Source: a bacterium (GTDB lineage: Bacteria > Sysuimicrobiota > Sysuimicrobiia > Sysuimicrobiales > Humicultoraceae). From it: a DNA stretch of 64,000 nt. The notes under the pieces were generated by a model. It had not been told where the DNA came from. It saw only the letters and a program-made list of their open reading frames with translations, and searched no databases. Numbering within the stretch: the first letter of the stretch is position 1; each line of letters opens with the position of its first letter. This document shows, piece by piece, positions 1,720 through 29,435 of this stretch. A program made the position numbers and the translations under genes. The DNA is taken from NCBI GenBank assembly GCA_041497675.1, contig JBGQGY010000001.1:32001-96000 (forward strand). The letters run 5' to 3'.

Positions 1720-2009
1720 CTGCCGCGCCCTCACCGCTCGAAGGACTGTTGGGTCTGGCCGGCGCCGTGCTGGTCTTTGCGGCCTGCGCCGCCGTAGGCG
1801 GCCTAGCCGCCGCATTCGCCACGGCCAGGCCGCGGCTGCGGGGGCCAAGGCGTCTGGTGGTCTACGGCGTGCTCTGCGGTGTGTTCCTCGCGATGGGGAT
1901 CGCGCTGACACGCAGCGAGGCGCGCGCCGTGGTCTGTGGATTCGCCATTCTGCCGTTCGTCGTGGGGTTCGTGATGGCGCGCGTTGATCTCCGCCGGCAG
2001 GCGGGGTGA
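1716..2009 (+). CDS. Small hypothetical membrane protein (~3 TM)
   Basis: MTAAPSPLEGLLGLAGAVLVF…; three hydrophobic stretches; ATGA translational coupling. Confidence 0.55.
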   Translation: MTAAPSPLEGLLGLAGAVLVFAACAAVGGLAAAFATARPRLRGPRRLVVYGVLCGVFLAMGIALTRSEARAVVCGFAILPFVVGFVMARVDLRRQAG

Positions 2010-2013
2010 GCCG

Positions 2014-2814
2014 CTATCGCGGCTGGCAGTTGAGGCAGTGGTTGGTGACTTGAAGCACCATTGTGCCGTAGACCCGGCCCAGACCGGCGATCTCGCTCGT
2101 CCCATTACTGGTGACCTCGCGCCAGAACGGCCGTCCCTCGATCGTGACAAACGTCAACCGGCTGCCGACCTGGCCCCAGTCGTAGAACAGCGTGATCTGA
2201 TGGACAACACCGGTGTCGTCGACGACGGTCCTCATGGCGTACGGCGGACCCGGTCGCACGATCTGCTGACGCTGGCTTGGGGCGAAGAGCCACTTGGCGA
2301 ACGCGCGCCGTGCCGTCTGGTCCTTGAGCAGCGCCTGCTGGTGATATTTCGTCATGATCTCGGTAATGATGTCCTGGCGCACGGCGCCGAGCACGTACCT
2401 GCCGTCGTTGCGATCCTCTTGGAGAAAGATGTCCAGCGTGGGCACGAACTCGGCCACCCTCTGCTCGTTTTCGATGATACTGGTCAGGATGGATCGGACG
2501 GCTCCGGAAAACGGCCGGACCAGAAAGGGGAGGTCGAGCCGGGTGATGGTGGCTTTCCGTATCCGTGGCTGTCCGTTGGCCGATCGCGACTCGAAGAGCG
2601 TGCCCACAGCGTGCACAGGAACCTGCCCGGTGGACAACGCCATGTTCAAGCGAGCCGTGAAGTCTGCCGTGAGCGTGTACGGGAGGGTGTTGGGCTCGGT
2701 GATGACCTTGGCCAGCAGGCTGTCGACGGTGACGTCTTGGGCCCCTGCCACGCCGACACACACGAGCACACAGACACACAACATCATCGCCTTCCGGCAG
2801 GCGACGGTGCACAT
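2014..2814 (-). CDS. Hypothetical exported protein
   Basis: Signal-peptide-like N-terminus (…LCVCVLVCVGVAGA-QD); TATAAT 9 nt upstream of the ATG. Confidence 0.65.
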   Translation of the reverse strand: MCTVACRKAMMLCVCVLVCVGVAGAQDVTVDSLLAKVITEPNTLPYTLTADFTARLNMALSTGQVPVHAVGTLFESRSANGQPRIRKATITRLDLPFLVRPFSGAVRSILTSIIENEQRVAEFVPTLDIFLQEDRNDGRYVLGAVRQDIITEIMTKYHQQALLKDQTARRAFAKWLFAPSQRQQIVRPGPPYAMRTVVDDTGVVHQITLFYDWGQVGSRLTFVTIEGRPFWREVTSNGTSEIAGLGRVYGTMVLQVTNHCLNCQPR

Positions 2815-2917
2815 AATAGAGCTATTATAGCGCACCCACCGTAGGGGGGAAGGGAGGGCGCGCCGCGACCTGGGCATAACATGGAGTGACCGGTCGGGGG
2901 CGCGAAGGGCGGCCAAC

Positions 2918-3724
2918 ATGCGGTACACGGATGCCGATCTGAGGTTTCTGGCGCTGGCGCTGTGGCGAGACGACCCGGCGGCCGCGGAGGAACGACTGCG
3001 GGAATGGCGCGCCGGGCCACAAGCCGTGGACGCCTGCCTGGATGACGAACGGGTCTTCAACGCGCTGACCGCCGACGATCGCGCGGTCATCGCGTTGTCA
3101 CCGCGCTTCCTGTTTACCCTGCTGCTGCGCCGGATCCGGCGAGACTTGGCGTCGATTCCGTACACGGTGGAACGGATTGAACGGGATGGCCGACTGGTCG
3201 TGTTCGATGCGGGAATCGTCCACCACATGCTCGAGAACGATGACATCTTCGCCTATCTGGTCGAACTGCTCGTATCGTTCGAGCGGGCGGAGACCCTGAC
3301 GGTCCGGCGGGCCACCCCGCCGGGAGGGTTGAGGCGTCTGTCGACCATGAGCATCGAAGACATGGTCGAACTGGCCGGGTTGGTCGATCAACCGCTCCGC
3401 CCGATGGTCTTCCGCCGGATCGGCGACATCGCATTGTTCACCACCTCGCTCTTCCCCGATGCGTTGCAGCACGGCCGGCGTCCGGCGGCGACCTCGGCGT
3501 ACGCGCGGCCACCGATACGCCGGTGGCGTCTGGAAGACTACGAGGAGGAAGGACGCACATTCTATCGGCTCGCCTCAGAAAACCTGCAGTCGAGCCAACC
3601 GGGGCTTGCCCGCGTTCTCGCGCGGCTTGCCTCCGACTTCGCGCTCGCCCGCAAACCGCTTCACGTGCTGAGTGAACGGTATATGGTCTGGGCGCGTCCG
3701 CACTGGCGGCAGACGCCCTCCTAA
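2918..3724 (+). CDS. Conserved hypothetical protein
   Basis: 268-aa ORF with globular composition; RRIGDIALFTTSLFPD and EEEGRTFYRLA motifs look family-conserved; function not recognised. Confidence 0.7.
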   Translation: MRYTDADLRFLALALWRDDPAAAEERLREWRAGPQAVDACLDDERVFNALTADDRAVIALSPRFLFTLLLRRIRRDLASIPYTVERIERDGRLVVFDAGIVHHMLENDDIFAYLVELLVSFERAETLTVRRATPPGGLRRLSTMSIEDMVELAGLVDQPLRPMVFRRIGDIALFTTSLFPDALQHGRRPAATSAYARPPIRRWRLEDYEEEGRTFYRLASENLQSSQPGLARVLARLASDFALARKPLHVLSERYMVWARPHWRQTPS

Positions 3725-3772
3725 CGCCCCCTCATCCGCACAAGTCGTGCCGGCGGTGGTACGATGTCGCCG

Positions 3773-5134
3773 ATGCTCAAACGCGATGACAGGATCGTGG
3801 TGGCCGTTGAGCGGCTGGCCTACGGCGGGCGTGGGGTCGCCCGGGTCAACGGCCAGGTCGTCTTCATCGTCGGCGCTGCGCCGGGTGACGTCGTTCGCGC
3901 ACGGGTGACGCGGGCCCGGCGATCGTACGCGGAGGCCGATGCCGACGCGATCGAACGTGCTTCCGCGGATCGGGTGACCCCGCGGTGTCCCCACTTTGGA
4001 ACCTGCGGCGGGTGCGGGTGGCAGCACATCGCCTATCCGGCCCAAGCGGCCGCAAAGGAAGAGTTCATCCGCGAGGCCCTGAGGCACCTCGGCGGCATCT
4101 CGGACGCCACTGTGCGCCCTATTGTTGGCGCGACCGATCCCTGGTACTACCGGAACAAGATGGAGTTTTCGTTTCACCCCGAGGGCACGCTGGGGTTGCA
4201 CCGGCGTGGGGAGTGGAACCGGATCGTGCCGGTGGAGTCCTGCTACCTGCAGTCTGATACGTCGATTGCGCTGGTACGGGCCGTGCGCGCGTTTGCGCGG
4301 CAGTCGGGGCTGCCGCCGTACGATCCAAGCACGCGCACAGGCTTTCTGCGCTCGTTGGTGATCCGCGAGGGACGCGCGACCGGCGACCGTCTGGTGGGCC
4401 TGCTGACCGGACCCGGCGCATTTCCCGCGGCCCAGGCGTTCATCGATGTCGTGCGGCAGGCCGCCCCAGACGTGACCGGGATCATCCGCGGCATCGTGGC
4501 CGGCGCATCAGACGGTGCGCCGATCACCGACATGGAGTCGCTCGAGGGACGCCCATTTCTTGAGGACGTCTTGGCCGGACTTCGGTTTCGGATCGGTCTC
4601 GATGCGTTCTTCCAGACGAACACGGTCCAGGCGGGCGCCATGGTCGAGTACGTGGTGCAGCGGGCGGAGCCGCTCGCGGGGCAGCCGGCGATCGACCTGT
4701 ACTGCGGCGTCGGGACGTTCTCGCTGGCGCTGGGGCGCGCGGGCGCCCGCGTGACGGGTATCGAGGTGGTCCAGGCTTCGATCGACGCGGCGAGGATGAA
4801 CGCCGACCTCAACGGGCTCGGCGGCCTGACGTTCATCAGCGGCGATGCGCGCGTCGCGCTGCCGGCCGCCGCGGCGCCGGTCGGGACGCCCGCGGTGCTC
4901 GTGCTGGATCCGCCCAGGGGCGGGGCCGGCGGCAAGGTGATGCGGAAGATCGGGCGCACCGGCGCCCGGCGCGTCATCTACGTCTCGTGCAACCCGACGA
5001 CGCTGGCGCCCGACCTGCGGGAATTACTGCCTTTTGGCTATCGTCTGATCGATGTGCAACCGTTCGATCTGTTTCCACACACCTATCACGTCGAGGCCGT
5101 CGCGGTCCTCGATCGGCAGGAGGGGACGACGTGA
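3773..5134 (+). CDS. rlmD: 23S rRNA (uracil-C5)-methyltransferase RlmD/RumA
   Basis: TRAM domain, CPHFGTCGGC Fe-S motif, YRNKMEFSF, FFQTN, DLYCGVG, LDPPRGG, YVSCNP, DLFPHTYHVE; start placed at ATG 3773 (ORF track gives 3764). Confidence 0.93.
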   Translation: MLKRDDRIVVAVERLAYGGRGVARVNGQVVFIVGAAPGDVVRARVTRARRSYAEADADAIERASADRVTPRCPHFGTCGGCGWQHIAYPAQAAAKEEFIREALRHLGGISDATVRPIVGATDPWYYRNKMEFSFHPEGTLGLHRRGEWNRIVPVESCYLQSDTSIALVRAVRAFARQSGLPPYDPSTRTGFLRSLVIREGRATGDRLVGLLTGPGAFPAAQAFIDVVRQAAPDVTGIIRGIVAGASDGAPITDMESLEGRPFLEDVLAGLRFRIGLDAFFQTNTVQAGAMVEYVVQRAEPLAGQPAIDLYCGVGTFSLALGRAGARVTGIEVVQASIDAARMNADLNGLGGLTFISGDARVALPAAAAPVGTPAVLVLDPPRGGAGGKVMRKIGRTGARRVIYVSCNPTTLAPDLRELLPFGYRLIDVQPFDLFPHTYHVEAVAVLDRQEGTT

Positions 5135-5694
5135 GCGTCATCCAGGCGATCAAGACACGGCGAAGTACTCCGAAGCTGCGGCCCGATCCGGTGCCGCGCG
5201 AGGCGCTGGAGCAGATGCTCGAGGCGGCGGTCTGGGCGCCCAACCACCGGCTGACGGAGCCGTGGCGGTTCTACGTGATCACGAGTGAAGATGCCAAGCG
5301 GCGGTTCGCGGAGATCCGCCGTCGGCTCCGCGCGTCGGCATTCCCGAATCCTGATGCGCCGGAGGCGCAGAAGGCGCTGGAGCGGATCACACAGGACACG
5401 ATGGCCACGCCCGCGCTGATCGTGGTGACCGTCCATCAGGCGGAGAATGAAGAGCAGCGGGAAGAGGACGTTGCCGCGACGTTCATGGCGATCCAGAACC
5501 TGATGCTGGCCGGCGTCGAGTTGAGCGTCGGCACCTACATGCGCACCGGCCCGATCATGCGCGACCCGGATCTACGCGCTCTGTTGAAGGTGGAAGACGA
5601 CCGGCGCATCGTCGCCATCATCCACGCCGGTCACACGTCGGACGTCCCGCAGAAGCGGCGTACGCCGGCGGCCGAAAAGACGGTCTGGTTGTAA
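5131..5694 (+). CDS. Nitroreductase family protein (YdjA-like)
   Basis: IKTRRS…LEAAVWAPNHRLTEPWRF…AIQNLMLA; GTG start overlapping the rlmD stop, AGGAGG RBS. Confidence 0.88.
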   Translation: MSVIQAIKTRRSTPKLRPDPVPREALEQMLEAAVWAPNHRLTEPWRFYVITSEDAKRRFAEIRRRLRASAFPNPDAPEAQKALERITQDTMATPALIVVTVHQAENEEQREEDVAATFMAIQNLMLAGVELSVGTYMRTGPIMRDPDLRALLKVEDDRRIVAIIHAGHTSDVPQKRRTPAAEKTVWL

Positions 5695-5703
5695 GGTGAT
5701 CGA

Positions 5704-6279
5704 CTAGCGCGGCGGGGTCGACACGATCCAGCGGCCGTAGAACTCCTCGTCGGTCATCTGGCTCTTGAGCCACCGGTCGACCTCCGGGACCGTGACGGCG
5801 ACGGTGGCGGCGATCCGACCGCTCGGCAATGCGACGCGCACGGTGATCGTATCGAGGGCCAGCTGAGGGTTCGCGCCGGGGCCGAGGATCCGCACGATCT
5901 CCGGCCGCAGCGACACCAGACGCCCGTCGGTCGTGGTGCGATAGAGGATATCGGCGCGGCGGGCGCCGCCGCGGGCGCGACGGTCGGTGATGGCCAGCCC
6001 GAGGATCTTGAACCCCTGACCCTCAAGCGCCTTCTTGTAGGTCGTCGACAGCTCGCGGTCGAGCTCGGGTTCATGCGACGAGGACGCCTGCGGGGCCGGC
6101 GGTGAGGTGGGCGCGCCCGGCGCCCGCGGAACGGCCGGCGACGCCGAGGGCCGGCCGCGATTGATGAGCGGCGACAGATCGGGTGAACCCGGCGTCTTGA
6201 TGAAGCGCTGATAGCCGACGACGGCGACGACCACCACCGCCAGTGCCACAACGATCCGCGTGCTCCAATTCACAGCCAT
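5704..6279 (-). CDS. Hypothetical membrane-anchored protein with Pro-rich linker
   Basis: N-terminal TM (IVVALAVVVVAVVGY), Pro/Ala-rich linker, C-terminal globular domain. Confidence 0.65.
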   Translation of the reverse strand: MAVNWSTRIVVALAVVVVAVVGYQRFIKTPGSPDLSPLINRGRPSASPAVPRAPGAPTSPPAPQASSSHEPELDRELSTTYKKALEGQGFKILGLAITDRRARGGARRADILYRTTTDGRLVSLRPEIVRILGPGANPQLALDTITVRVALPSGRIAATVAVTVPEVDRWLKSQMTDEEFYGRWIVSTPPR

Positions 6280-6362
6280 AGATGTTCGGCGTGACCCTGA
6301 CGCGTTCCTCACCGCCGACGGTACGGGCAGGAGGCCCGGTGGGCGCCGCGAAGGTTTGCGGA

Positions 6363-7379
6363 ATGCCGCGACCCCGCGTCTACGTTGCCCGCCGGATCCC
6401 CGGGCCCGGTCTCGAGCTGGTGCGCCGTGAGGCGGACGTCGCCGTCTGGCCGACCGACGAAGTGCCTCCGCCGCGCGACGTATTGATACAGGAAGCCGCC
6501 GCCTCCGACGGGATCATCTCGCTGCTCACGGACCGCATCGACGGTCAGTTGCTCGACGCCGCGCCGCGGCTGCGGGTCGTCAGCAACTACGCCGTGGGGT
6601 TTGACAACATCGACGTCGGCGCGGCCACCTCTCGTGGCGTCGTGATCACCAACACGCCGGGCGTCCTGACCGAGACGGTGGCCGATTTCACCATGGCGCT
6701 GATGCTCGCCACGGCACGTCGCGTCGTGGAGGGCGACAAGTTTACGCGCGCCGGCCGCTGGAAGAGCTGGGAGCCGATGCTGCTGCTCGGGCCGGACGTC
6801 TACGGGGCCACCCTCGGTCTGGTGGGGTTTGGCCGCATCGGCGCGTCGGTCGCGCGCCGCGCACGCGGGTTTGGCATGCGGATTCTCTACTATGACGTCG
6901 TTCGCCGCCAGGATCTGGAATCCGAACTCGGGATCGAGTTCGCGTCGTTCGAGGACGTCCTGCGGCAGGCCGACTTTGTCAGCGTGCACACGCCGCTGAC
7001 GCCGGAGACCCGGCATCTGATCAGCGGGCCGCAGTTCCGTCTCATGAAGAAGACCGCCGTGCTCGTCAATACTGCGCGGGGACCGATCGTCGACCCCGAC
7101 GCCCTCTACCAGGCCCTGTCGTCCGGGCAGATCTGGGGGGCGGGTCTCGATGTGTTCGAGGTCGAGCCGGTGCCCAAGGATCACCCGCTGCTGACCCTTG
7201 AGAACATCATTGTGGTCCCACACATCGCGAGTGCGAGCGTCGAGACGCGCACCAAGATGGCGAACATGGCGGTCGAGAACCTGCTCGCGGCGCTCGCCGG
7301 CCGCAAGCCGCCACACCTGGTGAACCCCGACGTCTGGGACCGGCGGCGTGGCGTGGGAGAGAGGAGCCACGACGGATGA
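6363..7379 (+). CDS. D-2-hydroxyacid dehydrogenase (glyoxylate/D-glycerate reductase, GyaR-like)
   Basis: [59 protein letters not shown]. Confidence 0.92.
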
Positions 7380-8212
7380 GGCGTCCACGGACGGCGCTGG
7401 TCTTACTGGTGGTCGTTGCGGCGCTCGCGCTGTTTTTCCGCTCGCGCCAGCCACGCGAGGCGTCGGCCCCGCAGCCGCGGACCCCGGCCCCGCAGACAGC
7501 ACCGGCACCCGTGCCGGATCTCGGCGGGCGGGAGATCAAGATCGGCAGCGACACGACGTATCCGCCGTTCGAAGTCGTGGACGCCGACAAGACCATCGTC
7601 GGGTTCGATCCCGACATGATGGATGAGATCTGCAAGCGGGCCCACTGCAAGCCGAAGTTCACCACGACGGCATGGGGAGGCATTTTCGTCGCGCTGTCGC
7701 AGGGCCAGTTCGACGCGGTCGCGTCCGGCGTCACCATCAACGATGAGCGGCGGAAGACGGTCGATTTTAGCGAGCCGTATCTTCGGTACGGCCAGGTCGT
7801 GCTCGTGCGCGCCGATGAGTCGGCGATCGACGGTGTTGACGGGCTGCGCGGCCGTACGGTGGGCGTCCAGACGGGGACGACCAACGACGACAAGGCCACC
7901 GCGTTGCAGCGTGAGGGAAAGGTCGGCACGGTTCGCCGCTACGACAACTTTGCGCTCGTGGTGAAGGCGTTGCTCAACAAGGATATCGACGCGGTGGTGA
8001 TCGACAGTTTTGCCGCCGATGGGTTCATCCAGCTCCATCAGGGTCAGTTGAAGAAGGTGGGCCCGCCGTTCACCAGCGAGGCCCTTGGGATCGCGCTCAA
8101 ACAGGGCGAGGCGACGCTCAAGCCGGCCTTTGACGCGGCGCTCGCGCAGATGAAGGCCGACGGGACGCTCGACGCGCTCTACAAGAAATGGTTCGTGGAA
8201 CACCCCCCCTAA
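7376..8212 (+). CDS. Polar amino-acid ABC transporter substrate-binding protein (family 3)
   Basis: [53 protein letters not shown]. Confidence 0.9.
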
Positions 8213-8241
8213 GCCGTAAGCGCGCGTGTAACGGCGACGCC

Positions 8242-8271
8242 TTGCGTTGCCTCAGGCAGCCTCCGTATAAT
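8242..8271 (+). promoter_or_regulatory. Sigma70-type promoter for tRNA-Val
   Basis: TTGCGT-N18-TATAAT, ending 12 nt upstream of the tRNA. Confidence 0.55.
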
Positions 8272-8283
8272 GAATGGCGCATT

Positions 8284-8358
8284 GGGCGCTTAGCTCAGGG
8301 GTAGAGCACCATCCTGACGCGATGGGGGTCGCAGGTTCAAATCCTGCAGCGCCCACCA
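8284..8358 (+). tRNA. tRNA-Val(GAC)
   Basis: Cloverleaf: acceptor GGGCGCT/AGCGCCC, D-arm GCTC/GAGC, anticodon stem CCATC/GATGG with loop CT-GAC-GC, T-arm GCAGG-TTCAAAT-CCTGC, encoded CCA. Confidence 0.96.
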
Positions 8359-8397
8359 ACAACCGAACAATCGTTCGCTGCGACAGATGCGAGAGTT

Positions 8398-8434
8398 CAA
8401 AGAAACGACCGTGCGCGAAACGGTCGTTCTTTTG
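8398..8434. terminator. Probable bidirectional intrinsic terminator
   Basis: AAAGAAACGACCGT-gcgcgaa-ACGGTCGTTCTTTT between the convergent tRNA and SnoaL-like gene. Confidence 0.7.
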
Positions 8435-8494
8435 TCGTCAGTCCATTCTCCAGGTACGGGATGAGCGATCCACGAGCCCTTCCTCGGGTAGATT

Positions 8495-8882
8495 CTAGAA
8501 CATCGTATTGGTGTTTGCGGCGGTTTCCGGGACTTCCTTCGAGGACGTCCCAATGCTCGACAATCTTGCCGTTCTCCAGTCGGAAGATGTCGATTACAGC
8601 CATCCCGCGGTCCCCTGGTTGTCGCACGAAATGGCTGTGCTGAACGACTAGGTCCCCTTCCGCGACCTGCCGCTTGATCGTGACCTGCAACTGGGGGAAC
8701 GCGCCTGCAAAGCCGCGTACGACCTGGATGAACGGCTCCGGTCCATCGCCTGCTTGGGGATTGTGCTGCCGGTAGTACGGGCCGATGTACCGCTTCACCG
8801 CATCTTCCGGCCGCCCTTGGTTGATGGCGAGTTCGCAAAACTCACGGACGATCCGCTTGTTCGCGTCTAGCTGGCCATTCAT
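8495..8882 (-). pseudogene. SnoaL/NTF2-like (ester cyclase family) protein with a frameshift near the C-terminus
   Basis: NKRIVREF…YRQHNP…DG…AEGDLV…DIFRLENGKIVEHWDVL; the family-like tail EVPETAANTNTMF* lies in another frame after one extra base at ~8538. Confidence 0.7.
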
Positions 8883-9043
8883 GGTTGTCCCTCCATAACT
8901 AGGGTAGGAGTCTTGCTCTCTTCTGGCGTGTTACTCTCCAAACGATGCATACTTATCGTAGGAGAGCAAAAGGAGTGCTACAAAGCGTGAGAAATCAGGT
9001 CCACACCGGATGGATTCCGGCGTCCTCCCATCGATAATGGTCC

Positions 9044-9080
9044 TTAGGGCGTCCTAATCAATCTCGTTAGGAGGTCCTCA
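9044..9080 (+). promoter_or_regulatory. Tandem DtxR/SirR/MntR-type operator boxes upstream of feoB
   Basis: TTAGG-gcgt-CCTAA (9044-9057) and TTAGG-aggt-CCTCA (9067-9080), just downstream of a GATAAT -10 (9033-9038). Confidence 0.7.
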
Positions 9081-9101
9081 GGGTCGGAACCGGAGGACGT
9101 C

Positions 9102-11084
9102 ATGTCAGGTTGTCACGATGTCGCGACTGTTGAGGCGGGCACGAATTCCCGGTTGCCGAGCGTTGCGCTGCTCGGGCACCACAACGTCGGCAAGTCCGTT
9201 TTATTTCAGCGCCTGACCGGCCGATTTGCCTCCGTCGCCAACTACCCGGGAACCACGGTGGAGGTCGCCCAGGGCACGTCGCGCGCGTTGGGCGGCATTC
9301 CGGTATTTGACACCCCAGGCGTCCTGGGGTTTCCCGCACGCTCAGAGGACGAGCAGGCCACGACTCGGGTGCTCCTTTTCGAGCCGCTGAAGGCGATCGT
9401 GCAGGTCGGCGACGCGAAGAACCTCCGGCGCACGCTGCTGCTGACCGTCCAACTCGCCGAGATGGGCGTGCCGTTGGTCCTGGCGTTAAACATGATGGAC
9501 GAAGCCGGAGCGCGCGGCGTGCGCGTGGAGAGCGAGCGCTTGAGTCAGCGGCTCGGCCTTCCCGTGCTGCAGACTGTCGCCATCACCGGCACCGGCGTGG
9601 ACGCGCTCGCCGGCGCGGTGTGTGAGGTAGGCCTGCCGCGGCTGCACCTGACCTACGGTGCGGAGATCGAGGACGCGCTGGCCGAGATCGGCCCGCAACT
9701 GCCGCCTGCGCCGATCTCGCCGCGGGCACTGGCGCTGCTGTGGCTGAGCCGCGACCACGTGATCGAGTCGTGGGCGGCGGAGCGGCTCGACAACGAGGTG
9801 TACCGGCGTCTCGTGGCGCGCCGCGAGGCGCTGCAGCTGTCCTTCACGGGGCCGATTGCCGAAGTCATCCAGCGCGCCCGTCTCGCTTGGGTCGCCGCGG
9901 TTGCCGCCTCGGTCATCACAGCCGAGGGAAACTGGTGGACCGGTCTGGGAGCGACGCTGGGACGGCTGGCCGCGCACCCGCTGTGGGGGCTGCCGATTCT
10001 TGCCGGTGTGTTGTACGGGGTGTACTGGTTCGTGGGCGTCTTCGGCGCCGGGACCCTTGTTGGTCTCCTGGAGGAACAGCTCTTCGGCGAGATCCTCAAC
10101 CCTCGCATCACGGCGTGGGTGGGCCGGGTCATTCCGATCAAGGTGGCTGCCGACTTCTTGGTCGGCGAGTACGGGCTCTGGACGATGGGCATGACCTATG
10201 CCCTGGCGCTCATCCTGCCCATCGTCACGACGTTCTTCGCCGTGTTCGGTGTGCTTGAGGACTCGGGATACCTACCCCGCCTCGCTGTGCTGAGCAACCG
10301 GATCTTTCGTGTGCTCGGTCTCAACGGGAAGGCGGTGCTTCCCATGGTGCTCGGCCTGGGCTGCGTGACCATGGCCACCCTCACGACGAGAATCCTGGAG
10401 AGCCGCCGTGACCGTCTCCTGGTGATCCTGCTGCTCGCGCTGGCTGTGCCCTGTTCGGCGCAGCTCGGCGTGGTGATGGGCATGCTGGCCAGCATCTCGC
10501 TCGCAGCGACGATGATCTGGGGTGGCGTGATTGGGCTCGTGCTGCTGGCGGTGGGATGGCTCGCCGCGCGCTTGGTGCCAGGGGAGCGGTCGTTTCTCGT
10601 GCTGGAGTTGCCGCCGCTGCGACGCCCGTCGCTCGCCGGGGTGGCGGCAAAGACCGCTGCGCGGCTTGAGTGGTATCTGAAGGAAGCCTTGCCGCTCTTT
10701 CTCGCCGGCTCGGCGCTCGTGTTCCTCATGGATCGGGTGGGAGCGCTGCCGGCGCTCACCCGGGCCGCGGAGCCGCTCGTCACCGGATGGTTGGGGCTTC
10801 CTCCTCAGGCGAGCGCGGCATTCCTGATGGGCTTCCTGCGGCGCGACTTCGGGGCCACCGGCCTGTTCGCCCTAGAGTCGCAGGGACTGCTGACGCCGCT
10901 GCAGGTCGTGGTGGCGATGGTCACCATCACCTTGTTCATCCCCTGTTTCGCCAGCGTGCTGATCATCGCCAAGGAGCGCGGGTCCCGGACCGCGGCGGCG
11001 GTGACGGCGCTGGTCTTTCCGCTGGCGTTCGTGGTGGGTGGCGTGCTGTACAGAATCCTCGGCGCGCTGGGGTGGGGCTCGTGA
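9102..11084 (+). CDS. feoB: Ferrous iron transporter FeoB
   Basis: G1 GHHNVGKS, VANYPGTTVE, DTPG, LNMMDEA, LEDSGYLPR, gate motifs LGLGC/VPCSAQ/IPCFA; GGAGGA RBS. Confidence 0.95.
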   Translation: MSGCHDVATVEAGTNSRLPSVALLGHHNVGKSVLFQRLTGRFASVANYPGTTVEVAQGTSRALGGIPVFDTPGVLGFPARSEDEQATTRVLLFEPLKAIVQVGDAKNLRRTLLLTVQLAEMGVPLVLALNMMDEAGARGVRVESERLSQRLGLPVLQTVAITGTGVDALAGAVCEVGLPRLHLTYGAEIEDALAEIGPQLPPAPISPRALALLWLSRDHVIESWAAERLDNEVYRRLVARREALQLSFTGPIAEVIQRARLAWVAAVAASVITAEGNWWTGLGATLGRLAAHPLWGLPILAGVLYGVYWFVGVFGAGTLVGLLEEQLFGEILNPRITAWVGRVIPIKVAADFLVGEYGLWTMGMTYALALILPIVTTFFAVFGVLEDSGYLPRLAVLSNRIFRVLGLNGKAVLPMVLGLGCVTMATLTTRILESRRDRLLVILLLALAVPCSAQLGVVMGMLASISLAATMIWGGVIGLVLLAVGWLAARLVPGERSFLVLELPPLRRPSLAGVAAKTAARLEWYLKEALPLFLAGSALVFLMDRVGALPALTRAAEPLVTGWLGLPPQASAAFLMGFLRRDFGATGLFALESQGLLTPLQVVVAMVTITLFIPCFASVLIIAKERGSRTAAAVTALVFPLAFVVGGVLYRILGALGWGS

Positions 11085-11557
11085 GGGTACCCCTGATGAC
11101 TTGCTCGATGTGCGGCCATGTCTACGATCCAGCCGACGCGCAGGCTTGCGCTGCGTGCCCGCTGCACACAGGCTGCGCAATGACGTGCTGCCCGGCGTGC
11201 GGGTACACCGCGGTCGACCCCAACCGGTCCACGCTCGCGCGTTGGTTCGCCGGCATCTTCGGCGGGCACACGATTGTGGGTCGGACCGGTACGCACGGGA
11301 CGGAGTGGGACGGTCCGCGGCCCGACCTCATGCTTGCCGACCTATCTCCCGGCGACGAAGCTAGCGTGGTGGACTTCGAGGGGCCCGCCGCGGATAGGCG
11401 CGCGCAGTTGCAGGCGTATGGGCTCGTGCCGGGCCGCCGGCTGCGCGTCGTTCAACAGCGACCGGTTACGGTACTGCTGGTGGATCACACCGAGCTTGCC
11501 ATTGAAGGGGATCTGGCCCGAGGTATCAGGGTGCAACGGCCGGCACTAACCGCGTGA
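11081..11557 (+). CDS. feoA: FeoA-domain protein with N-terminal 8-Cys metal-binding domain
   Basis: C-terminal LADLSPGDEASVV…LQAYGLVPGRRLRVVQQRPVTVLLVDHTELAI (FeoA SH3-like); N-terminal CxxC…CxxC…C…CCxxC; GTGA overlap with the feoB stop. Confidence 0.8.
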   Translation: MRVPLMTCSMCGHVYDPADAQACAACPLHTGCAMTCCPACGYTAVDPNRSTLARWFAGIFGGHTIVGRTGTHGTEWDGPRPDLMLADLSPGDEASVVDFEGPAADRRAQLQAYGLVPGRRLRVVQQRPVTVLLVDHTELAIEGDLARGIRVQRPALTA

Positions 11558-12781: not shown

Positions 12782-12862
12782 GGTATGATGGTAACCGTGC
12801 CGGTCATATCGGGAGAGGATGTCGGGAACTCGGTCCGGACCGAGTTGGGCACCGGTGCGTCT

Positions 12863-14620
<1,758 letters not shown>

Positions 14621-22533: not shown

Positions 22534-23328
22534 ATGCGCAAGTGGAATCTGGCCCTGATGAACTCTGGTGAGATTGGTGCGATCGTCAAAGAGCACTCGC
22601 TGCTGCTGGTCCCGGTTGGCTGCGTCGAGCAGCACGGACCCGTCGGGTTCACCGGCGCCGACACGTATCTTGCAGAATACGTGTGCCACCGGGCGGCTGA
22701 GAGACTCGACGATGTGTACGTGACGCCGCCGTTGTGGTTTGGGTACACGCCCTACACCAGTTTCGCGGGGACGGTGAGCCTGCGTCTGGCGACCTTGGAG
22801 GCCGTCGTCCAGGACGTCGTGGAAGGGTATCTGGCGCACGGGTTCCGTCACATCGTCATTGTCAACAACCATGGACCAAACGAGGCGGCGATCGAGCCCG
22901 TGGCGGCGAGGGTGCGGCGGCAGCACGGGGTGGTGCTCGGCGTGCTCTATCCGTGGCGACTGGCTAATCACGTGTCGGCGGATCTATACCCGGATACCCG
23001 CGCCGTCTTCGGCCACGGTGGCGAGCCGACGATTTCTGTCATGATGGCGCTCTCACCCGGAACGATCGACCCGTCGCCTCCCGGGGCGCGCGGCTACGTG
23101 AGTCCGGAAGGCCCGTTCCAGGTCACGTCGTACCGAGCGGCCCGGTTCGGCGGTTTTGAGATCGGGTTGTTCAACGAAGCGTCACACGTGCTTCCCAGCG
23201 GGGCCAGCGGGGACTGGACCGTGGCGTCCGAGGAGCGCGGCCGCGAGATTCTCCGACGCATGGTAGACTACGCGTTGCAGTTCCTGCCCGCGTTTTTGCG
23301 TCTGAGCCGCGAGCGCCGCCGCCCCTAG
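22534..23328 (+). CDS. Creatininase family amidohydrolase
   Basis: PVGCVEQHG…D, FAGTVSL, VNNHGPN, GHGGEPT, ASEERG; GGAGG RBS before ATG 22534. Confidence 0.88.
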   Translation: MRKWNLALMNSGEIGAIVKEHSLLLVPVGCVEQHGPVGFTGADTYLAEYVCHRAAERLDDVYVTPPLWFGYTPYTSFAGTVSLRLATLEAVVQDVVEGYLAHGFRHIVIVNNHGPNEAAIEPVAARVRRQHGVVLGVLYPWRLANHVSADLYPDTRAVFGHGGEPTISVMMALSPGTIDPSPPGARGYVSPEGPFQVTSYRAARFGGFEIGLFNEASHVLPSGASGDWTVASEERGREILRRMVDYALQFLPAFLRLSRERRRP

Positions 23329-24725
23329 GCCGCGGGTTCCTCCGGAGGGAACTTCAGGGCCGCGATCTCGATGCCGGCCTCGGTGGGATCGACCGACTGC
23401 ACGATGTGTCTGGTGTGATGTTCCTCGAGGTCCAGATCGGACACCACCTCGGGCGGGGTGGCCTGCGGGTCGATCACGCTGACGAGCGGGCGAGCGGGGC
23501 TGCTGCGGCCCGGCCGGCGGACCACGGCGAGGGTGCCTCCGTCCAGACGGACCAGAGTACCCACCGGGTAGACGCCCATCTCCTGCAAGAAGATCCTCGC
23601 CAGCGTGGGGTCATAGAGCGTTCCCGCGCCCGCCAGGATGAGCCGCATGGCCTCTTCGGGGGTGTGGGGCCGGCGGTAGACCCGCCGAGACGTTGTCGCG
23701 GCGTCGAATACGTCTGCGATCTGTACGAGGCGCGCGAGCAGGTGCGGACGGGGTTTGGTGCTGATGCGCGGGTATCCCGACAGGTCGTAGTTGGCGTGGT
23801 GCTCGAACGCGACGACCATCGTCAGCTTTGACGGGCCCGCGAGCCCGCGCAGCATCTCCGCCCCAAGGATCGGGTGCTGCTGGATGATGGTCCGCTCGTC
23901 GTCGGTGAGTTTGCCGACCTTGTTGAGGATCTCGTGGGGGATGCGCGTCTTGCCGATGTCATGCATCAATGCCGCGACGCCGAGCGTGGCCATCTGGTCG
24001 CGGCTGAACGCCAACCGCGGCGCCATGAACAGCGCCAGGATGCCCACGTTGACCGAGTGATGCGCCGTGTCTGCGTCATAGTTCTTGATGGTGGCGGCGC
24101 GCATGAGGCTCAGCGGGTCTTTGGTGAGGATGTCGACGAGTGAATCCACGACAACGCGGGCTTTGTGCAAGTTGAGGGCGCCGTTGCCCGCCGCCTGCGA
24201 GTAGAGTTCGTCGATGACGCGCAGCCCGGCGCGGTAGGCGTCGGTCGGCTCAACCTTGAGCGCGGCCCGCGCCGTGACCGGGTTTGCCTCGGTAGCCCCC
24301 ACGGAGAGGTAGCGGATCCCGCGGTGGTCGAGGTACGCGGCGGCCCCGCCCATCTGTTGCACCTCAGCGACCGGCATGCAGAGCATGTCGACGAAATGGC
24401 GCAACTCGTGCAACTCCACGCCGCGGCGGATTTCGAGCGACAGAATGGAGCGTCGCCTGAACTCACCGAGGAGTGAGGCCAGCTGGAGACTTTCCTCGAG
24501 TAATATGGTGTTGTCCACAAAAAATGTCTCTTCATGGATAAAGATTCCAATTAATGGGCGGTCGGCCAGCAACGCCGTGACCAACTGATACGCGTCCGCG
24601 ACGAAGCGGTCGATGACCCGATGGGTGCGGCCGTAGAGCGCCGCGGTTCGGCGGATCCGCGAGAGCGCGCGCAAGACTTCAACCGGTCGCTCGCGCACAA
24701 TGGGGTTGAACGCGGGGTCGGTCAC
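23325..24725 (-). CDS. HD-GYP domain phosphodiesterase (putative c-di-GMP PDE) with unassigned N-terminal domain
   Basis: HHSVNV, MHDIGK, LNKVGKLT, QHPILG, EHHANYDLSGYP, IADVFDA, C-terminal YPVGTLVRL. Confidence 0.88.
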   Translation of the reverse strand: MTDPAFNPIVRERPVEVLRALSRIRRTAALYGRTHRVIDRFVADAYQLVTALLADRPLIGIFIHEETFFVDNTILLEESLQLASLLGEFRRRSILSLEIRRGVELHELRHFVDMLCMPVAEVQQMGGAAAYLDHRGIRYLSVGATEANPVTARAALKVEPTDAYRAGLRVIDELYSQAAGNGALNLHKARVVVDSLVDILTKDPLSLMRAATIKNYDADTAHHSVNVGILALFMAPRLAFSRDQMATLGVAALMHDIGKTRIPHEILNKVGKLTDDERTIIQQHPILGAEMLRGLAGPSKLTMVVAFEHHANYDLSGYPRISTKPRPHLLARLVQIADVFDAATTSRRVYRRPHTPEEAMRLILAGAGTLYDPTLARIFLQEMGVYPVGTLVRLDGGTLAVVRRPGRSSPARPLVSVIDPQATPPEVVSDLDLEEHHTRHIVQSVDPTEAGIEIAALKFPPEEPAA

Positions 24726-26731
24726 GTGGGTCGCGCCTGCATGCTGGCAGCCGGAGGCATGCGGTCGGGCGCCCCGTCGAAGGCCTGGATCGTGGCGACG
24801 GCCTCCCCGGCCAGGCGCCGGAGGGTGCGGGGCCGTCGCCCGAAGGCGAGCCGGTGTTGGGAGAATCGAACCAGCGCGGGGATCGCGTCTTTGGCGCGCG
24901 ACCGCGCCAAAGACGCGATAATCTCCTGCTTGAGGGCAAAGGTCAACTGCATCGGGTCGAGCCGCGCCAGCAAGTGGAGCAACTTCGGCAGGGAGAGCAG
25001 CACCGCGGTGTCGCTCATCGAGAGGACGACCTTGAGACGGATCCGCCCATCGACGTCGTCGAGCAGCTTGGCCAGTAGCGCGTTGGCCTCCTGCCCGCCG
25101 ATGCTGGCAAGGGCGGCTACGGCCTCGCTGCGAACACGGTGGTCGCGATGCGAGGCGAGCCGCGCGATGTGACCCATCCCCCGAGGATCGCCCAGACGAC
25201 CCAAGATGTATGCGACGTTACGCGCCAGATACCAACGCCCATCGGTCGCGAAGAATCCCACGTCGTCGATGCGATCGCGGGCCAGGGTCACGATGATGTC
25301 GCAGAGCATTCGCCGAGTCCCGGCACGCAACTCCTCACCAAGGATCATCATCAGCGGCGCAACGATGCGACTGCCCAGCAGCGACAGACACAGTCGAAGC
25401 TCTTCCTCCACCGGGGTGCCGCGGCCGTTCCACAGCGTCTCCACCATCGTATTGAGGAGGCGGGTTTTCGCCACCCCATCCGTGAGATCCGCCACCGCGC
25501 GCTCGTGAGCCGGCGTCTTGGCGGCGCCGTCCCGAAGGCCTTGCAGCACGACCCGCAGCAGCGAGAAATCTTCCTGCCCGACGAGCCACGGGAGGTACTC
25601 ATCGACTGATCGGATCGTGCCCACGATCTCTGACTCATCCGCCTGGTTGCGAAACATGTCGACGAGCGTGCCGATGACCTCGCGGGCGACGGAGGCCTCG
25701 TCCGTGCCCTCCATCTCGATGCGGATGCTTTCTGGCGGTCCGTCATCGGCCGGGCGCCCCGCCGGGAGGGGCAGGGAGGTGGACCCCGCGACCGCCGTCT
25801 GCGGCTGCTGCGCGTGCAGGATTTGCATCTCCGGGTCCAAAGCCAGCAGGTCGCCCGGACCCTCGCCCCCGCTGCTTTCGAGCGAGTTACGGGGCACAAT
25901 CCCGACCAGTCTCTGCTCGGACAGATGGTCCAGTAGCACCCGGGCCATCGCATCGTTGCTCCCCGGCGCGGTCAGCGTGCGCTGCAGCGGCATCCGAACC
26001 GGGTCCTCGAGCAGGAGGATGGCCGCGGCGAGGTGGCTGTAGAACTGCTCGCGGTCTTCGCTGGACTGGGTCGCGATGATGCGATCGAGGTTCTTGACGA
26101 CGTCGTACAGCGTCTGACTCCAGTCGAGGTGCTGGTCGTCGGCCGCGTTCCCCAGCATCGTCCGCAATTGCTCGAACAGTCCGCCAATCGCACCGGGGCC
26201 GGACCTCAGGATGTCGACGACAAACTGATGATTTTCGGCGGTCAGTTCCTGGCCGTCGCCCATCAGGTCCCACAACGCGCCCCACGACTCGTCCTGCGGC
26301 GCGGCGCCCACGGCGAGAACGATCTCCATGACCCTGATCGTCTGCACACCTGCCCGGCGCATGCCTCCGGCGATACCCCCGGACCCTTCGAGACTCACCC
26401 GGTCTTGTCTGACGATGGTCAAGAACGTCGTGATCTCCTGGGCGGTCACACCGGGGAGGACCGCGAAGCCGATGACCTTTCTGGCGTACAGGTGGAGGGC
26501 CAGGCTGGCCGACGTGGCATCCTTGAACGTCGCCTCGTTGACCTGGAACGACCGGCGGGATACCCGAACGGTGAACGGTCCGTTTGTCTCGATGTAGGTA
26601 TGCAGCCCGGCGAGGACCTCGCCAATCGCCCGGTCCGTGACCGGGCTCGGGGGCGGATAGAGGGTGTAGGTCTTGAGAGCGACGGCAAAACGTCGCAGGA
26701 TGGCGCTCGCCGCGGATGCCTTTGAGTCCAT
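24722..26731 (-). CDS. HEAT/PBS-lyase repeat protein with unassigned N-terminal domain
   Basis: C-terminal repeats WYLARNVAYILGRLG, HRDHRVRSEAVAALASIG, LDDVDGRIRLKVV; 4-nt overlap with the HD-GYP gene. Confidence 0.8.
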   Translation of the reverse strand: MDSKASAASAILRRFAVALKTYTLYPPPSPVTDRAIGEVLAGLHTYIETNGPFTVRVSRRSFQVNEATFKDATSASLALHLYARKVIGFAVLPGVTAQEITTFLTIVRQDRVSLEGSGGIAGGMRRAGVQTIRVMEIVLAVGAAPQDESWGALWDLMGDGQELTAENHQFVVDILRSGPGAIGGLFEQLRTMLGNAADDQHLDWSQTLYDVVKNLDRIIATQSSEDREQFYSHLAAAILLLEDPVRMPLQRTLTAPGSNDAMARVLLDHLSEQRLVGIVPRNSLESSGGEGPGDLLALDPEMQILHAQQPQTAVAGSTSLPLPAGRPADDGPPESIRIEMEGTDEASVAREVIGTLVDMFRNQADESEIVGTIRSVDEYLPWLVGQEDFSLLRVVLQGLRDGAAKTPAHERAVADLTDGVAKTRLLNTMVETLWNGRGTPVEEELRLCLSLLGSRIVAPLMMILGEELRAGTRRMLCDIIVTLARDRIDDVGFFATDGRWYLARNVAYILGRLGDPRGMGHIARLASHRDHRVRSEAVAALASIGGQEANALLAKLLDDVDGRIRLKVVLSMSDTAVLLSLPKLLHLLARLDPMQLTFALKQEIIASLARSRAKDAIPALVRFSQHRLAFGRRPRTLRRLAGEAVATIQAFDGAPDRMPPAASMQARPT

Positions 26732-26735
26732 GGAG

Positions 26736-29321
26736 TTAGCCCGCGGTCACCACGCGGTCGCGTCCTTCTGCCTTCGCCCGGTAGAGGGCGGCGTCCGCGG
26801 CCTTGAGCACCTTTTCGCCGGTCGCCTCGTGGTCGGGGAAGACGGCGATGCCCAGCGAGAGGGTCACCGCTCCCAGGGACGTCCCTTGGTGCTCGACGGA
26901 CAGACGCGCGGCGGCCTGACGGATCCCCTCGGCCCGCGCCTGGGCGATATGGAGCGGCGCGCCCGGTAGGATCAGGGCGAACTCCTCGCCGCCGTACCGG
27001 CAGGCGATGTCCTCAGCGCGGATACCCTTTTGGAGCACGGTGGCGAGTGCCCGCAAGAGCGCGTCGCCCGCCGCGTGGCCGAAGGAGTCGTTGAATCGCT
27101 TGAAGTGGTCGAGATCCAGCATGATCACAGAAACGGGAATCCCCGCGCGGGACGCCCGCTGCAGCTCGCGTATCAGCGATTCCTCCATGTACCGCCGGTT
27201 GAACAGACCGGTGAGCGGGTCGCGGATCGACTGGTGGCGCAGCGTCTCTCGCAGCCGCAGGTTCGTAATGGCCAGTCCGATCTGTTCGGCGACCGCGCCG
27301 GCAAGCTGCTCGACGGATTCGCTCCAGATGTCTGGGTGATGAAGATCGATCCCCCGGATCGCGAGGTGCAACACTCCAAGGGAATCGCCCTGTGAGGCCA
27401 TCGGGATGCAGATGGTCGCATCCGGTGGGTGGGGCCCCAGGTGCGGGCAGGGAAGACCAGCGGTCGTCGACGTCCACGTGTGCCCCCGGCCCCGTCGGAC
27501 GGCCCAGCAGTCCTCAGGGACGAACACGTGCGGGGTCGGGGCCCCGTCGCCCCACGCCGTGACGGCCTCGAGCAGGTCGTTGGCCGGCGTCAGGATGTAC
27601 AGCGCACCCGACAGCTTGGGAAACAGCTGGGGGAGGAAGAGCGCGACCACCTTCGAGACCTCGTCTTGGTGCTGGCAGCCCAGCAGATATTCGGTCATCT
27701 CGCCAAGCAACGAAATCTCGCGGTTCCGCTGCTGGAGCTGACCGACCCACGCCGTGAGCTTTTCGTTGGCCTCACGGACGGCCTTCTCGGCCTGCTTACG
27801 CTCGGTCAGGTCGGTGATGATGGCGATGGAGCCGTGGTACTCGCCGTCCTTGATCCGTGGCACGGCCGTCACCAAGACGTCGATCACTTTGCCCCCGGCA
27901 CCCTTGAACCGGACGTCATACGTGTCGACGGCGCCCTCCCGTCGCCGGCCGCGCGCCGCCTTGATGACCGCGTGATCGTCTTCATAAACGAAGTCCATCG
28001 TGTTCTTGTACGTCAGCCGCTCCACGGGGTAGCCGAGCATGTCGGCGAGGGCAGGGTTGACGTACTCATAGCGCCCCTGCGCATCGGTGACCGCGAGCCC
28101 CTGCGCGATCGTGTTCATGACCTGCAGTGCGAAATCGCGCTGCGCGCGCAGCTCGCCATCGATGCGCTTGCGATCGGTGATGTCCTCGGCGATGCCCACG
28201 AATCCTGTGACCCTTGCATCTTTGTCGCGGATCGCGCCGGCCTGGGCCTGCACCCAGTGGATCTCGCCGTCTGGGCGTTGGAAGCGGAACTCCAGCGAGA
28301 ATTCGCGCCCTTCGCGCGTACACGTATCCCACCATGTGGAGACCAGCACGCGGTCGTCGGCGTGGATCGCCAGAGTCCAGCCGTCGCCAATGTTCTCGTC
28401 CAGACGGAGCCCGGTGATTTCTTGCCACTTGGCGTTGACGTACTCGCACCGCCCCGCCGGGTCCGTGTGGAAGATGCCCATCGGCGACGCGGCTGCCAGC
28501 GAGCGGAACCGTTCCTCACTCTGCCGCAGCGCCTCTTCAGCGAGGTGACGCGTTGAGATGTCCCGCGCGTGGGCCTGGAAGCCGGCGACGCGATCGCCGT
28601 CGAGTATCAAATGGACGTTTTGGCCCAGCCACGTCCGCCCGCCGCTCTTGGTCATCACCGGCAGTTCGAGGTATGAGGTCGGTGTTCGTTCGCTGATCTG
28701 CACGCGATAGAAGGCCCGCGCTTCCTTTCGGGCTTCGGGGGCGACCAGGTCGAGATAGTGACGGCCGACGCATTCCTCCGGAGAGAACCCCAGAACGCGC
28801 GTCACCACCGCATTCACAAACGTAAAGCGTCCTCGGTTGTCCGTCTGATAGATGATATCGGTGGCCTGTTCGATGAGGGTCTTGTAGCGGCTCTGGCTCT
28901 CCCGCAGCGCCTCCGCGGCTAGTCGCCGCTCCGTGATGTCGATCCCGAGTGAAATCGTGCCTGTGGCGCTGCCCCCGTCGCGCATCTCCCTGTTGTGCCA
29001 GGAAATGAACCGCTCCTCGCCCGAGCTGGTCAGGATGGGGCCTTCGAGTGAAGCCGGGATCCCGGCGGCGGCCCCGCGTGCGAACTGTTCCCACGCGTCG
29101 GGATACCGTGACCGCGGCACAAGGACTTCGAACCAGTCGCGACCCACCAGGTCGGCTGGGGCGTACCCGGTGATGCGCTCGGCTTCGTCGTTGGTCCAGA
29201 CGATCCGGCCGGCCGTGTCGAGTTGGATGACGATGACGTGGGCGTGCTGAATCAGATCCTGGGCTAGGGCCTGGACCTGCAGAGCCGGCTGTTGGCGTGG
29301 AAGGTTGGCAACCTCGCCCAT
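26736..29321 (-). CDS. Diguanylate cyclase with four PAS domains and a GAF domain
   Basis: Four PAS/PAC units (DITERR, DISTR, DITDRK, DLTERK), GAF, DPLTGLFNRR, DLDHFKRFND, I-site RAED and GGEEF; start 29321 chosen from an AAGGA RBS (29342 possible). Confidence 0.93.
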   Translation of the reverse strand: MGEVANLPRQQPALQVQALAQDLIQHAHVIVIQLDTAGRIVWTNDEAERITGYAPADLVGRDWFEVLVPRSRYPDAWEQFARGAAAGIPASLEGPILTSSGEERFISWHNREMRDGGSATGTISLGIDITERRLAAEALRESQSRYKTLIEQATDIIYQTDNRGRFTFVNAVVTRVLGFSPEECVGRHYLDLVAPEARKEARAFYRVQISERTPTSYLELPVMTKSGGRTWLGQNVHLILDGDRVAGFQAHARDISTRHLAEEALRQSEERFRSLAAASPMGIFHTDPAGRCEYVNAKWQEITGLRLDENIGDGWTLAIHADDRVLVSTWWDTCTREGREFSLEFRFQRPDGEIHWVQAQAGAIRDKDARVTGFVGIAEDITDRKRIDGELRAQRDFALQVMNTIAQGLAVTDAQGRYEYVNPALADMLGYPVERLTYKNTMDFVYEDDHAVIKAARGRRREGAVDTYDVRFKGAGGKVIDVLVTAVPRIKDGEYHGSIAIITDLTERKQAEKAVREANEKLTAWVGQLQQRNREISLLGEMTEYLLGCQHQDEVSKVVALFLPQLFPKLSGALYILTPANDLLEAVTAWGDGAPTPHVFVPEDCWAVRRGRGHTWTSTTAGLPCPHLGPHPPDATICIPMASQGDSLGVLHLAIRGIDLHHPDIWSESVEQLAGAVAEQIGLAITNLRLRETLRHQSIRDPLTGLFNRRYMEESLIRELQRASRAGIPVSVIMLDLDHFKRFNDSFGHAAGDALLRALATVLQKGIRAEDIACRYGGEEFALILPGAPLHIAQARAEGIRQAAARLSVEHQGTSLGAVTLSLGIAVFPDHEATGEKVLKAADAALYRAKAEGRDRVVTAG

Positions 29322-29435
29322 CCGTGCCGTCCTTTTTGGCATCCTGTAAAAAAGGTGTCGGGAGGTTATTCCCGTTTTGATGGAAGTTCAGGCCGCGCAC
29401 AGGACTCAGCGGCACATCGGAGAACACCCGTACCC

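Follow-up and report, generated by a model that had tools for sequence, protein, structure and literature searches.

The HD-GYP enzymes are the least understood phosphodiesterases of cyclic diguanylate (c-di-GMP), and most of them possess undefined N-terminal regions. Some local c-di-GMP modules are built on protein partners, as in the case of RpfG with its GGDEF and PilZ partners or of the PdeR-DgcM-MlrA system. To our knowledge, no c-di-GMP module contains a HEAT-repeat subunit or a domain which is common to the enzyme and its partner. Among the domains discussed below, those of the MASE type are membrane domains. The subject of the present analysis is a pair of adjacent genes in a stretch of 64,000 nucleotides (nt) from a bacterium of the phylum Sysuimicrobiota (contig JBGQGY010000001.1, positions 32,001 to 96,000, of the assembly GCA_041497675.1; in the following referred to as the window). 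These genes are predicted to encode a HEAT-repeat protein and an HD-GYP phosphodiesterase which, according to profile comparisons, share a homologous N-terminal domain.

In the accessible text of the preprint 10.1101/2021.11.05.467447, a sensor function is expected of the N-terminal domains found in HD-GYP proteins. The DUF3391 domain (PF11871) consists of four to five antiparallel strands and one to two helices, as described in the accessible part of PMC12943098, and the N-terminal domain of Bd1817 comprises the amino acid (aa) residues 1-78 according to the corresponding part of PMC3188283.

Homology and spread of the N-terminal domain

In the preliminary description of the window, residues 11-134 of the HEAT protein had been aligned by eye with residues 17-142 of the HD-GYP protein. 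BLASTP reproduced exactly this alignment (23 of 126 residues identical, 18%; one gap of two residues; 22.3 bits) with an E value of 0.05, which is marginal by itself for this one HEAT/HD-GYP comparison. The family profiles provided the significance. For each of the two proteins 17 relatives were collected at E<=0.001; in the case of the HEAT protein, 15 of its 17 were aligned with it. When the full-length families were compared using hhalign (16 HEAT against 18 HD-GYP sequences), the match was confined to the N-termini (probability 96.2%, E 2.7e-9, 130 columns), and the N-termini alone (11 against 12 sequences) reached a probability of 97.9% and an E value of 3.3e-13 over 128 columns. A joint profile of the domain detected exactly six matches in the genome of the bacterium at E<=1 (E 8.8e-60 to 1.9e-37), all of which represent N-termini of HEAT or HD-GYP genes. 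The match for the HEAT copy of the window lies at positions 58306-58731 of contig C1 (window 26306-26731, E 1.1e-54) and that for the HD-GYP copy at window positions 24276-24719 (E 8.8e-60). As judged from these profiles, the N-termini of the HEAT and HD-GYP proteins are truly homologous.

The preliminary description could not assign the domain to a named family, which the searches against Pfam, NCBIfam and PDB sequences bore out. No Pfam family was found at E<=10 for either N-terminus of the window, no Pfam or NCBIfam family was matched by more than one of 40 diverse members of the domain, and PDB sequence profiles yielded noise only (E about 1). The AlphaFold model of the HD-GYP N-terminal domain (predicted local distance difference test, pLDDT, 92.0; predicted template modelling score, pTM, 0.84) predicts an alpha/beta domain of about 130 residues in which two long helices are followed, in this order, by three strands, a pair of helices, one strand, another three helices and a final strand. 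Two motifs mark the domain, LY-P-x-x-H-P, which is located between helices 1 and 2, and a GG that is near-invariant; the residues Y31, G126 and G127 are nearly invariant across the 40 diverse members. Foldseek revealed no clear structural neighbour of the model among the rows shown, and the ESM Atlas provided no usable match. A likeness to PelD and GAF domains was rejected as noise (Foldseek E about 0.7, TM-score about 0.2).

The joint profile matched 5461 representative clusters at E<=0.001, 1072 of them at E<=1e-10. Based on these searches the N-terminal domain represents an uncatalogued, widespread domain family distinct from DUF3391. The Pfam architectures were determined for 126 of the best 150 clusters, leaving out most short matches, P0155, and the proteins P0012 and P0016 which were already part of the HEAT family. 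HEAT_2 was found in 76 of these 126 proteins, HD or HD_5 in 20, HisKA in four and MshEN together with T2SSE in one, while 25 were without a match. Among the four HisKA carriers only P0084 also matches PAS and HATPase_c. Two rare fusions were observed: P0174 (1040 aa) combines the domain with MshEN and T2SSE, and P0150 (1411 aa), counted among the 76 HEAT_2 proteins, consists of GGDEF, AAA_16, the domain in two copies and HEAT repeats.

Seven proteins contain two full copies of the domain, and five of them comprise about 300 aa with nothing else aboard. Since the members of the P0039 cluster have 302-317 aa and are encoded on contigs of up to 57 kb, P0039 is a complete two-copy protein; longer relatives of it were searched for and none was found, which is weak evidence. 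In the model of P0039 two confidently folded domains (pLDDT 92.5) are joined by a linker below pLDDT 50. In a FastTree analysis of the domain with 141 rows, the sequences group according to their architecture, the HD label changing 6 times compared with a shuffled mean of 19.0 and the HEAT label 23 times compared with 46.7. None of 500 shuffles was as low for either label, yet the tree does not resolve into two clean clades. The search for related loci in genome contigs was negative for P0001 as query, and with the alignment of the 16 full-length HEAT sequences it yielded no conserved stretch. The 79 loci related to the kinase-type protein P0084 match its kinase part only and none of them holds the domain. 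These loci led to five genomes, with Poribacteria, Elusimicrobia, Loosdrechtia, Thermoanaerobaculia and Omnitrophica as titles, in none of which the domain profile found a match.

Recurrence of the HEAT/HD-GYP gene pair

The six copies of the domain in the genome of the bacterium belong to three HEAT and three HD-GYP genes, which form three pairs. These pairs are paralogous, and the identity of their shared domains does not exceed about 43%. Three of the eight HD_5 proteins encoded in this genome carry the domain, and these are the three with the lowest HD_5 scores. In the window the two genes were reported to overlap by 4 nt, and the sequence indeed reads GTGA, in which the stop codon TGA of the HEAT gene overlaps with the start codon GTG of the HD-GYP gene. 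This arrangement suggests a translational coupling of the two genes.

The scan of the phylum covered 94 genomes, including the unpublished genomes G017 and G024 with one pair each, and produced 150 listed matches and eight further ones. The domain was detected in 49 of the 94 genomes. Among the matches listed, 122 of the 150 fall in 62 same-strand pairs with a distance of 1379-2197 nt, and at least one pair occurs in 39 of the 49 domain-bearing genomes. In all 11 pairs examined the longer domain-encoding open reading frame (ORF) is located upstream and the shorter one downstream, and HEAT_2 plus HD or HD_5 were confirmed by Pfam in five of them. According to the ORF coordinates overlaps of 4 nt are also present in L039, L042, L046 and L043b. 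The genes flanking the pair vary between the loci and are not conserved. The HEAT gene followed by the HD-GYP gene is a conserved, often overlapping unit.

One locus (L043; contig C36 of genome G055) harbours two back-to-back pairs at 5264..1819 (-) and 7774..11417 (+). The second one belongs to a shorter class with domain starts about 1.6 kb apart, and for its HD protein of 374 aa there is a match to HD at E<=1e-4 but none to HD_5. Genes for T2SSE ATPases border both pairs (2-1717 and 11579-13000), and the downstream gene includes an MshEN domain.

Outside the phylum, where the phylum names given here are those of the record titles, the domain was found at 14 of 80 HD-GYP loci belonging to named genomes. 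At 13 of these 14 loci at least two domain ORFs lie on the same strand, and the upstream ORF matches HEAT_2 at 13 of the 14, in 12 cases above the cut-off. The titles of the carrier genomes include Gemmatimonadota, Methylomirabilales, Acidobacteriota, a 'Deltaproteobacteria' metagenome-assembled genome (MAG) and Eisenbacteria. The pair is also carried by an Actinomycetota MAG, and one relative of the HD-GYP protein of the window is labelled 'Armatimonadota bacterium'. The named carriers of the pair detected here are MAGs. The co-occurrence of the two genes, which the preliminary description had named as a check on its proposal, is thus tight in the genome of the bacterium, in its phylum and in other phyla, and the recurring gene pair points to an unstudied two-protein signalling unit.

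Further loci carry the domain in other contexts. In a Victivallales MAG (L127) a kinase-type carrier for which Pfam detects HisKA only is encoded at 5189-7084 (+), with a P-type ATPase gene upstream and a TPR/PMT_2 gene downstream. In locus L128 a two-copy gene (2797-3702, +) lies directly upstream of a gene for an MshEN-T2SSE ATPase (3810-5522, +), and a T2SSF gene is located at 6752-8077 (+).

Possible functions of the shared domain

The preliminary description had proposed a docking or sensing module for heterodimers of the HEAT protein with the phosphodiesterase, or for a partner or ligand common to both; the homology of the N-termini, the lack of a match in Pfam, NCBIfam and the PDB and the tight co-occurrence support this proposal in part. 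We assign a probability of roughly 0.5 to the reading that the HEAT protein binds its cognate HD-GYP enzyme by means of the shared domain, which would serve as a module for homotypic contacts. The HEAT protein would then be an accessory, regulatory or localising subunit of the enzyme, and its binding would make the breakdown of c-di-GMP a local process specific to the partner. Co-diverging pairs of domains would keep the several paralogous pairs of a cell apart, and in the putative operon of the window the diguanylate cyclase encoded upstream would supply the c-di-GMP that is removed by the HEAT/HD-GYP complex. A variant is equally compatible with the data, namely a domain that forms dimers in all of its carriers, with the HEAT protein entering mixed dimers which switch the enzyme.

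A partnership of the two proteins is suggested by the homology of their N-termini, the GTGA overlap, the one-to-one copy numbers, the conserved gene order, the recurrence across phyla, the variable genes around the pair, the two-copy proteins and the co-divergence of the two domain copies.

Several observations weigh against binding through the shared domain or limit what speaks for it. Over 11 pairs, the pairwise identities within the HEAT copies correlate with those within the HD-GYP copies at r 0.953, a value reached in none of 5000 permutations, but any two genes that are inherited and duplicated together would give the same result. In the two-copy proteins the first copy scores HEAT-like in five of five cases and the second HD-like in three of five, in a comparison of profiles of unequal depth (about 74 against 19 sequences) with a weak second-copy preference of 4 to 13 bits. 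The model of the two-copy protein P0039 predicts no fixed or confident packing between the two copies (pTM 0.59). Furthermore, 28 of the 150 listed matches in the phylum are unpaired, some of them being located at contig ends. Finally, the kinase gene of L127, the sole histidine-kinase carrier with a readable locus, contains a single copy of the domain, and no second copy or HEAT partner was found within 13 kb; the domain therefore seems able to work without a hetero-partner.

This kinase would fit a cytoplasmic sensor. In that case the HEAT and HD-GYP proteins would each sense the same small molecule or state of the cell independently, and their adjacency would result from sensor duplication plus fusion, by which one arose from the other, and from their function in the same pathway. 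The domain is always located N-terminally of signalling outputs (HD-GYP, PAS-HisKA-HATPase kinases, MshEN-T2SSE), which is the usual place of a sensor and in line with the expectation in the accessible text of 10.1101/2021.11.05.467447, and the near-invariant Y31, G126 and G127 are residues as a pocket might show. However, no resemblance of the modelled domain to a known ligand-binding fold was seen among the Foldseek rows shown, and a sensor would be odd on a protein whose sole detectable output is HEAT repeats. A sensor also leaves the two-copy proteins unexplained, as well as the strict order in which one HEAT and one HD-GYP carrier adjoin each other. We regard a sensory function as rather unlikely.

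It is improbable that the domain docks a common third partner, for example an MshEN-type pilus or secretion ATPase, by which the HEAT scaffold and the phosphodiesterase would be brought to the same machine. This proposal draws on three separate links to MshEN-T2SSE, namely the fusion protein P0174, the T2SSE genes flanking both pairs of L043 and the two-copy gene of L128. A T2SSE gene was detected in three of the 77 domain-bearing loci scanned, which is a small share, although many of these loci have a length of only about 3.4 kb. Moreover, none of the five MshEN genes of the bacterium is located on the contigs of its three pairs, and adjacency is not binding.

A further possibility is that the domain is merely a divergent DUF3391 of Bd1817-type HD-GYP proteins and hence nothing new. 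Both are located ahead of the HD-GYP domain and belong to a similar length class, and many HD-GYP proteins with an unannotated N-terminus may possess a divergent DUF3391 domain, as argued in the accessible part of PMC12943098. However, the PF11871 model was matched at E<=10 by none of the 40 diverse members and by neither N-terminus of the window. A PF11871 scan of the genome was empty, but since the control genomes were empty too, it is uninformative. The profile of the HD-GYP family meets the Bd1817 structure 3tm8 in the catalytic part only, and 3tm8 is absent among the Foldseek rows shown for the N-terminal domain. As far as a comparison by description allows, a beta-rich domain and an N-terminal domain of only 78 residues also fit poorly to a model which opens with two long helices and spans about 130 residues. 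A hidden DUF3391 is therefore very improbable.

The probability that the N-termini are unrelated and resemble each other by chance or composition is negligible, since the modest BLASTP result and the G+C content of the genome (66%), to which this explanation could appeal, are outweighed by hhalign and by the joint profile, which recovers both families and nothing else in the genome, and since the topology of the domain in the window recurs in the models of both copies of a two-copy protein.

Returning to the contact module, a more far-reaching version can be put forward tentatively only. According to this version, the domain would be a new homotypic pairing module that defines a class of c-di-GMP phosphodiesterases which is widespread yet undescribed and which combines two subunits, a HEAT and an HD-GYP subunit. 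Insulated cognate pairs, three in this bacterium, would be kept specific by co-diverging domains as in two-component systems, and in some lineages they may be connected with pilus or secretion ATPases of the MshEN type. Other uses of the domain would be represented by the two-copy proteins and by the fusions to kinases and ATPases.

Should the HEAT and HD-GYP proteins form a complex, they would represent a new accessory-subunit principle for c-di-GMP turnover and offer a route to local signalling specificity. One of the undefined N-terminal regions of HD-GYP proteins is now a well-defined, widespread domain which is common to an obligatory-looking HEAT neighbour across phyla. At least, a new domain family is to be catalogued, by which thousands of proteins would be annotated.

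Gene arrangement and comparison with described systems

The genes predicted to encode the cyclase, the HEAT protein and the HD-GYP protein form a head-to-tail row of three on the minus strand of the window, the stop codon of the cyclase gene lying 4 nt ahead of the start of the HEAT gene according to the junction sequence (Table 1). An upstream cyclase gene was found only at the window locus among the 11 pairs examined. The cyclase matches PAS in four stretches (E 6.4e-55), GAF_3 and GGDEF (170.6 bits, E 3e-50). Its translation contains the active-site motif RYGGEEF (GGEEF) and, five residues before, the RxxD site RAED, so that the protein appears to have the features of the GGDEF family.

The preliminary description had called the HEAT protein non-enzymatic. 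This agrees with the detection of nothing but HEAT repeats by Pfam and NCBIfam (HEAT_2: 48.1 bits, cut-off 27.7, E 1.5e-12; HEAT_PBS: 22.2 bits, cut-off 20.9), but it does not extend to residues of about 150-480, which are without a Pfam or NCBIfam match.

In the HD-GYP protein the catalytic domain HD_5 (PF13487) was identified with 94.5 bits (cut-off 27.2, E 7.7e-27). Since the HD dyad, the HH pair and the GYP motif (H255, D256, H309, H310, G317, Y318 and P319) are invariant across 18 aligned members of the family, the enzyme looks active; the window protein reads MHDIGK and FEHHANYDLSGYP. Its closest relative, P0021 (482 aa), is 95% identical overall and 96% identical over the N-terminal 165 residues. 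P0021 has 16 extra residues in an unstructured leader before the domain, and the window copy (24690-24725, -) looks like an in-frame length variant.

The translation of a divergent ORF at 29292-30416 (+) shows hydrophobic residues at the N-terminus and some seven repeats like 'NSRIVR(I/V)(N/D)DMTGAGW', which may resemble NHL or beta-propeller repeats. At least 56% of the sampled words from 23325-29342 are contained in each of 24 public DNA runs with the label sediment metagenome, two of which may represent the source sample; the listing included no RNA run.

Table 1. Features of the three-gene row in the window and the other two HEAT/HD-GYP pairs of the genome. Positions refer to the window unless a contig is named.
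Feature	Position (nt)	Strand	Basis
Diguanylate cyclase gene (868 aa; four PAS, GAF, GGDEF)	26736..29342	-	ORF and translation, Pfam, junction sequence
HEAT-repeat partner gene (669 aa; shared domain at the N-terminus, about 330 residues without assignment, HEAT repeats at the C-terminus)	24722..26731	-	ORF, Pfam
Shared N-terminal domain of HEAT protein, residues 10-139	26315..26704	-	hhalign, own-genome profile match
HEAT_2 repeat block of HEAT protein, residues 496-571	25019..25246	-	Pfam
HD-GYP phosphodiesterase gene (466 aa), GTG start	23325..24725	-	ORF, Pfam
Shared N-terminal domain of HD-GYP protein, residues 16-147	24285..24680	-	hhalign, own-genome match, AlphaFold model
HD_5 (HD-GYP) catalytic domain, residues 218-375	23601..24074	-	Pfam
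GTGA, HEAT stop TGA and HD-GYP start GTG, 4-nt overlap	24722..24725	-	Sequence read directly
Second own-genome pair	Contig C9, HEAT 8669..6573, HD-GYP 6569..5214	-	Stop and start 3 nt apart
Third own-genome pair, split over the ends of contigs C128/C233	L008 1822..2; L009 449..1807	-; +	

A literature search retrieved no described HEAT/HD-GYP pair and no HEAT partner with a paralogous domain; the supplements of PMC12943098 and 10.1101/2021.11.05.467447 may list more N-terminal domains. The word HEAT does not occur in the accessible text of 10.1101/2021.11.05.467447 on MASE9-11 and other domains, from which the domain in the window also differs in being modelled as a compact alpha/beta domain.

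With its catalytic part the HD-GYP protein resembles solved structures. The profile of its family matches PDB 4mcw, 5z7c, 4r8z, 9rbz, 9rc0 and 3tm8 only over the profile positions 211-396. The closest solved catalytic relative is PmGH of Persephonella marina (4MCW/4MDZ/4ME4; E 9.2e-35, profile positions 227-396 aligned with chain positions 186-355), the HD and GYP residues of which are kept in the window protein. In contrast, the N-terminal region of PmGH does not align, and 4mcw is absent among the Foldseek rows shown for the N-terminal domain. Bd1817 (3TM8) likewise has an HD-GYP catalytic domain behind an uncharacterised N-terminal domain, and the catalytic parts are homologous (E 3.7e-11, profile positions 211-308). 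It differs from the window protein, the N-terminal domain of which is without a PF11871 match and comprises about 130 residues with a helical opening instead of about 78 beta-rich ones. Furthermore, the domain in the window has a paralogous copy on the adjoining HEAT protein, whereas the accessible parts of PMC12943098 and PMC3188283 mention none for DUF3391.

The C-terminal repeats of the HEAT protein resemble those of PBS-lyase-type HEAT proteins such as NblB and CpcE in matching HEAT_2 and HEAT_PBS (PF03130). The matches to NblB (27.7 bits) and CpcE (23.2 bits) are weak and far under their equivalog cut-offs, which are 300 and 330 bits, respectively, and there is no phycobilisome context. 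Unlike these proteins, the HEAT protein of the window has the additional N-terminal domain and a region of about 330 residues without assignment.

As in the RpfG and PdeR-DgcM-MlrA modules, a c-di-GMP enzyme would depend here on a dedicated partner, and the window also has a cyclase gene in the same row; unlike in these modules, the partnership proposed for the window is derived from gene order only. The catalytic half of the phosphodiesterase thus appears to be that of an ordinary member of the HD-GYP family, and the novel parts of the system would be the regulatory domain and the dedicated HEAT partner.

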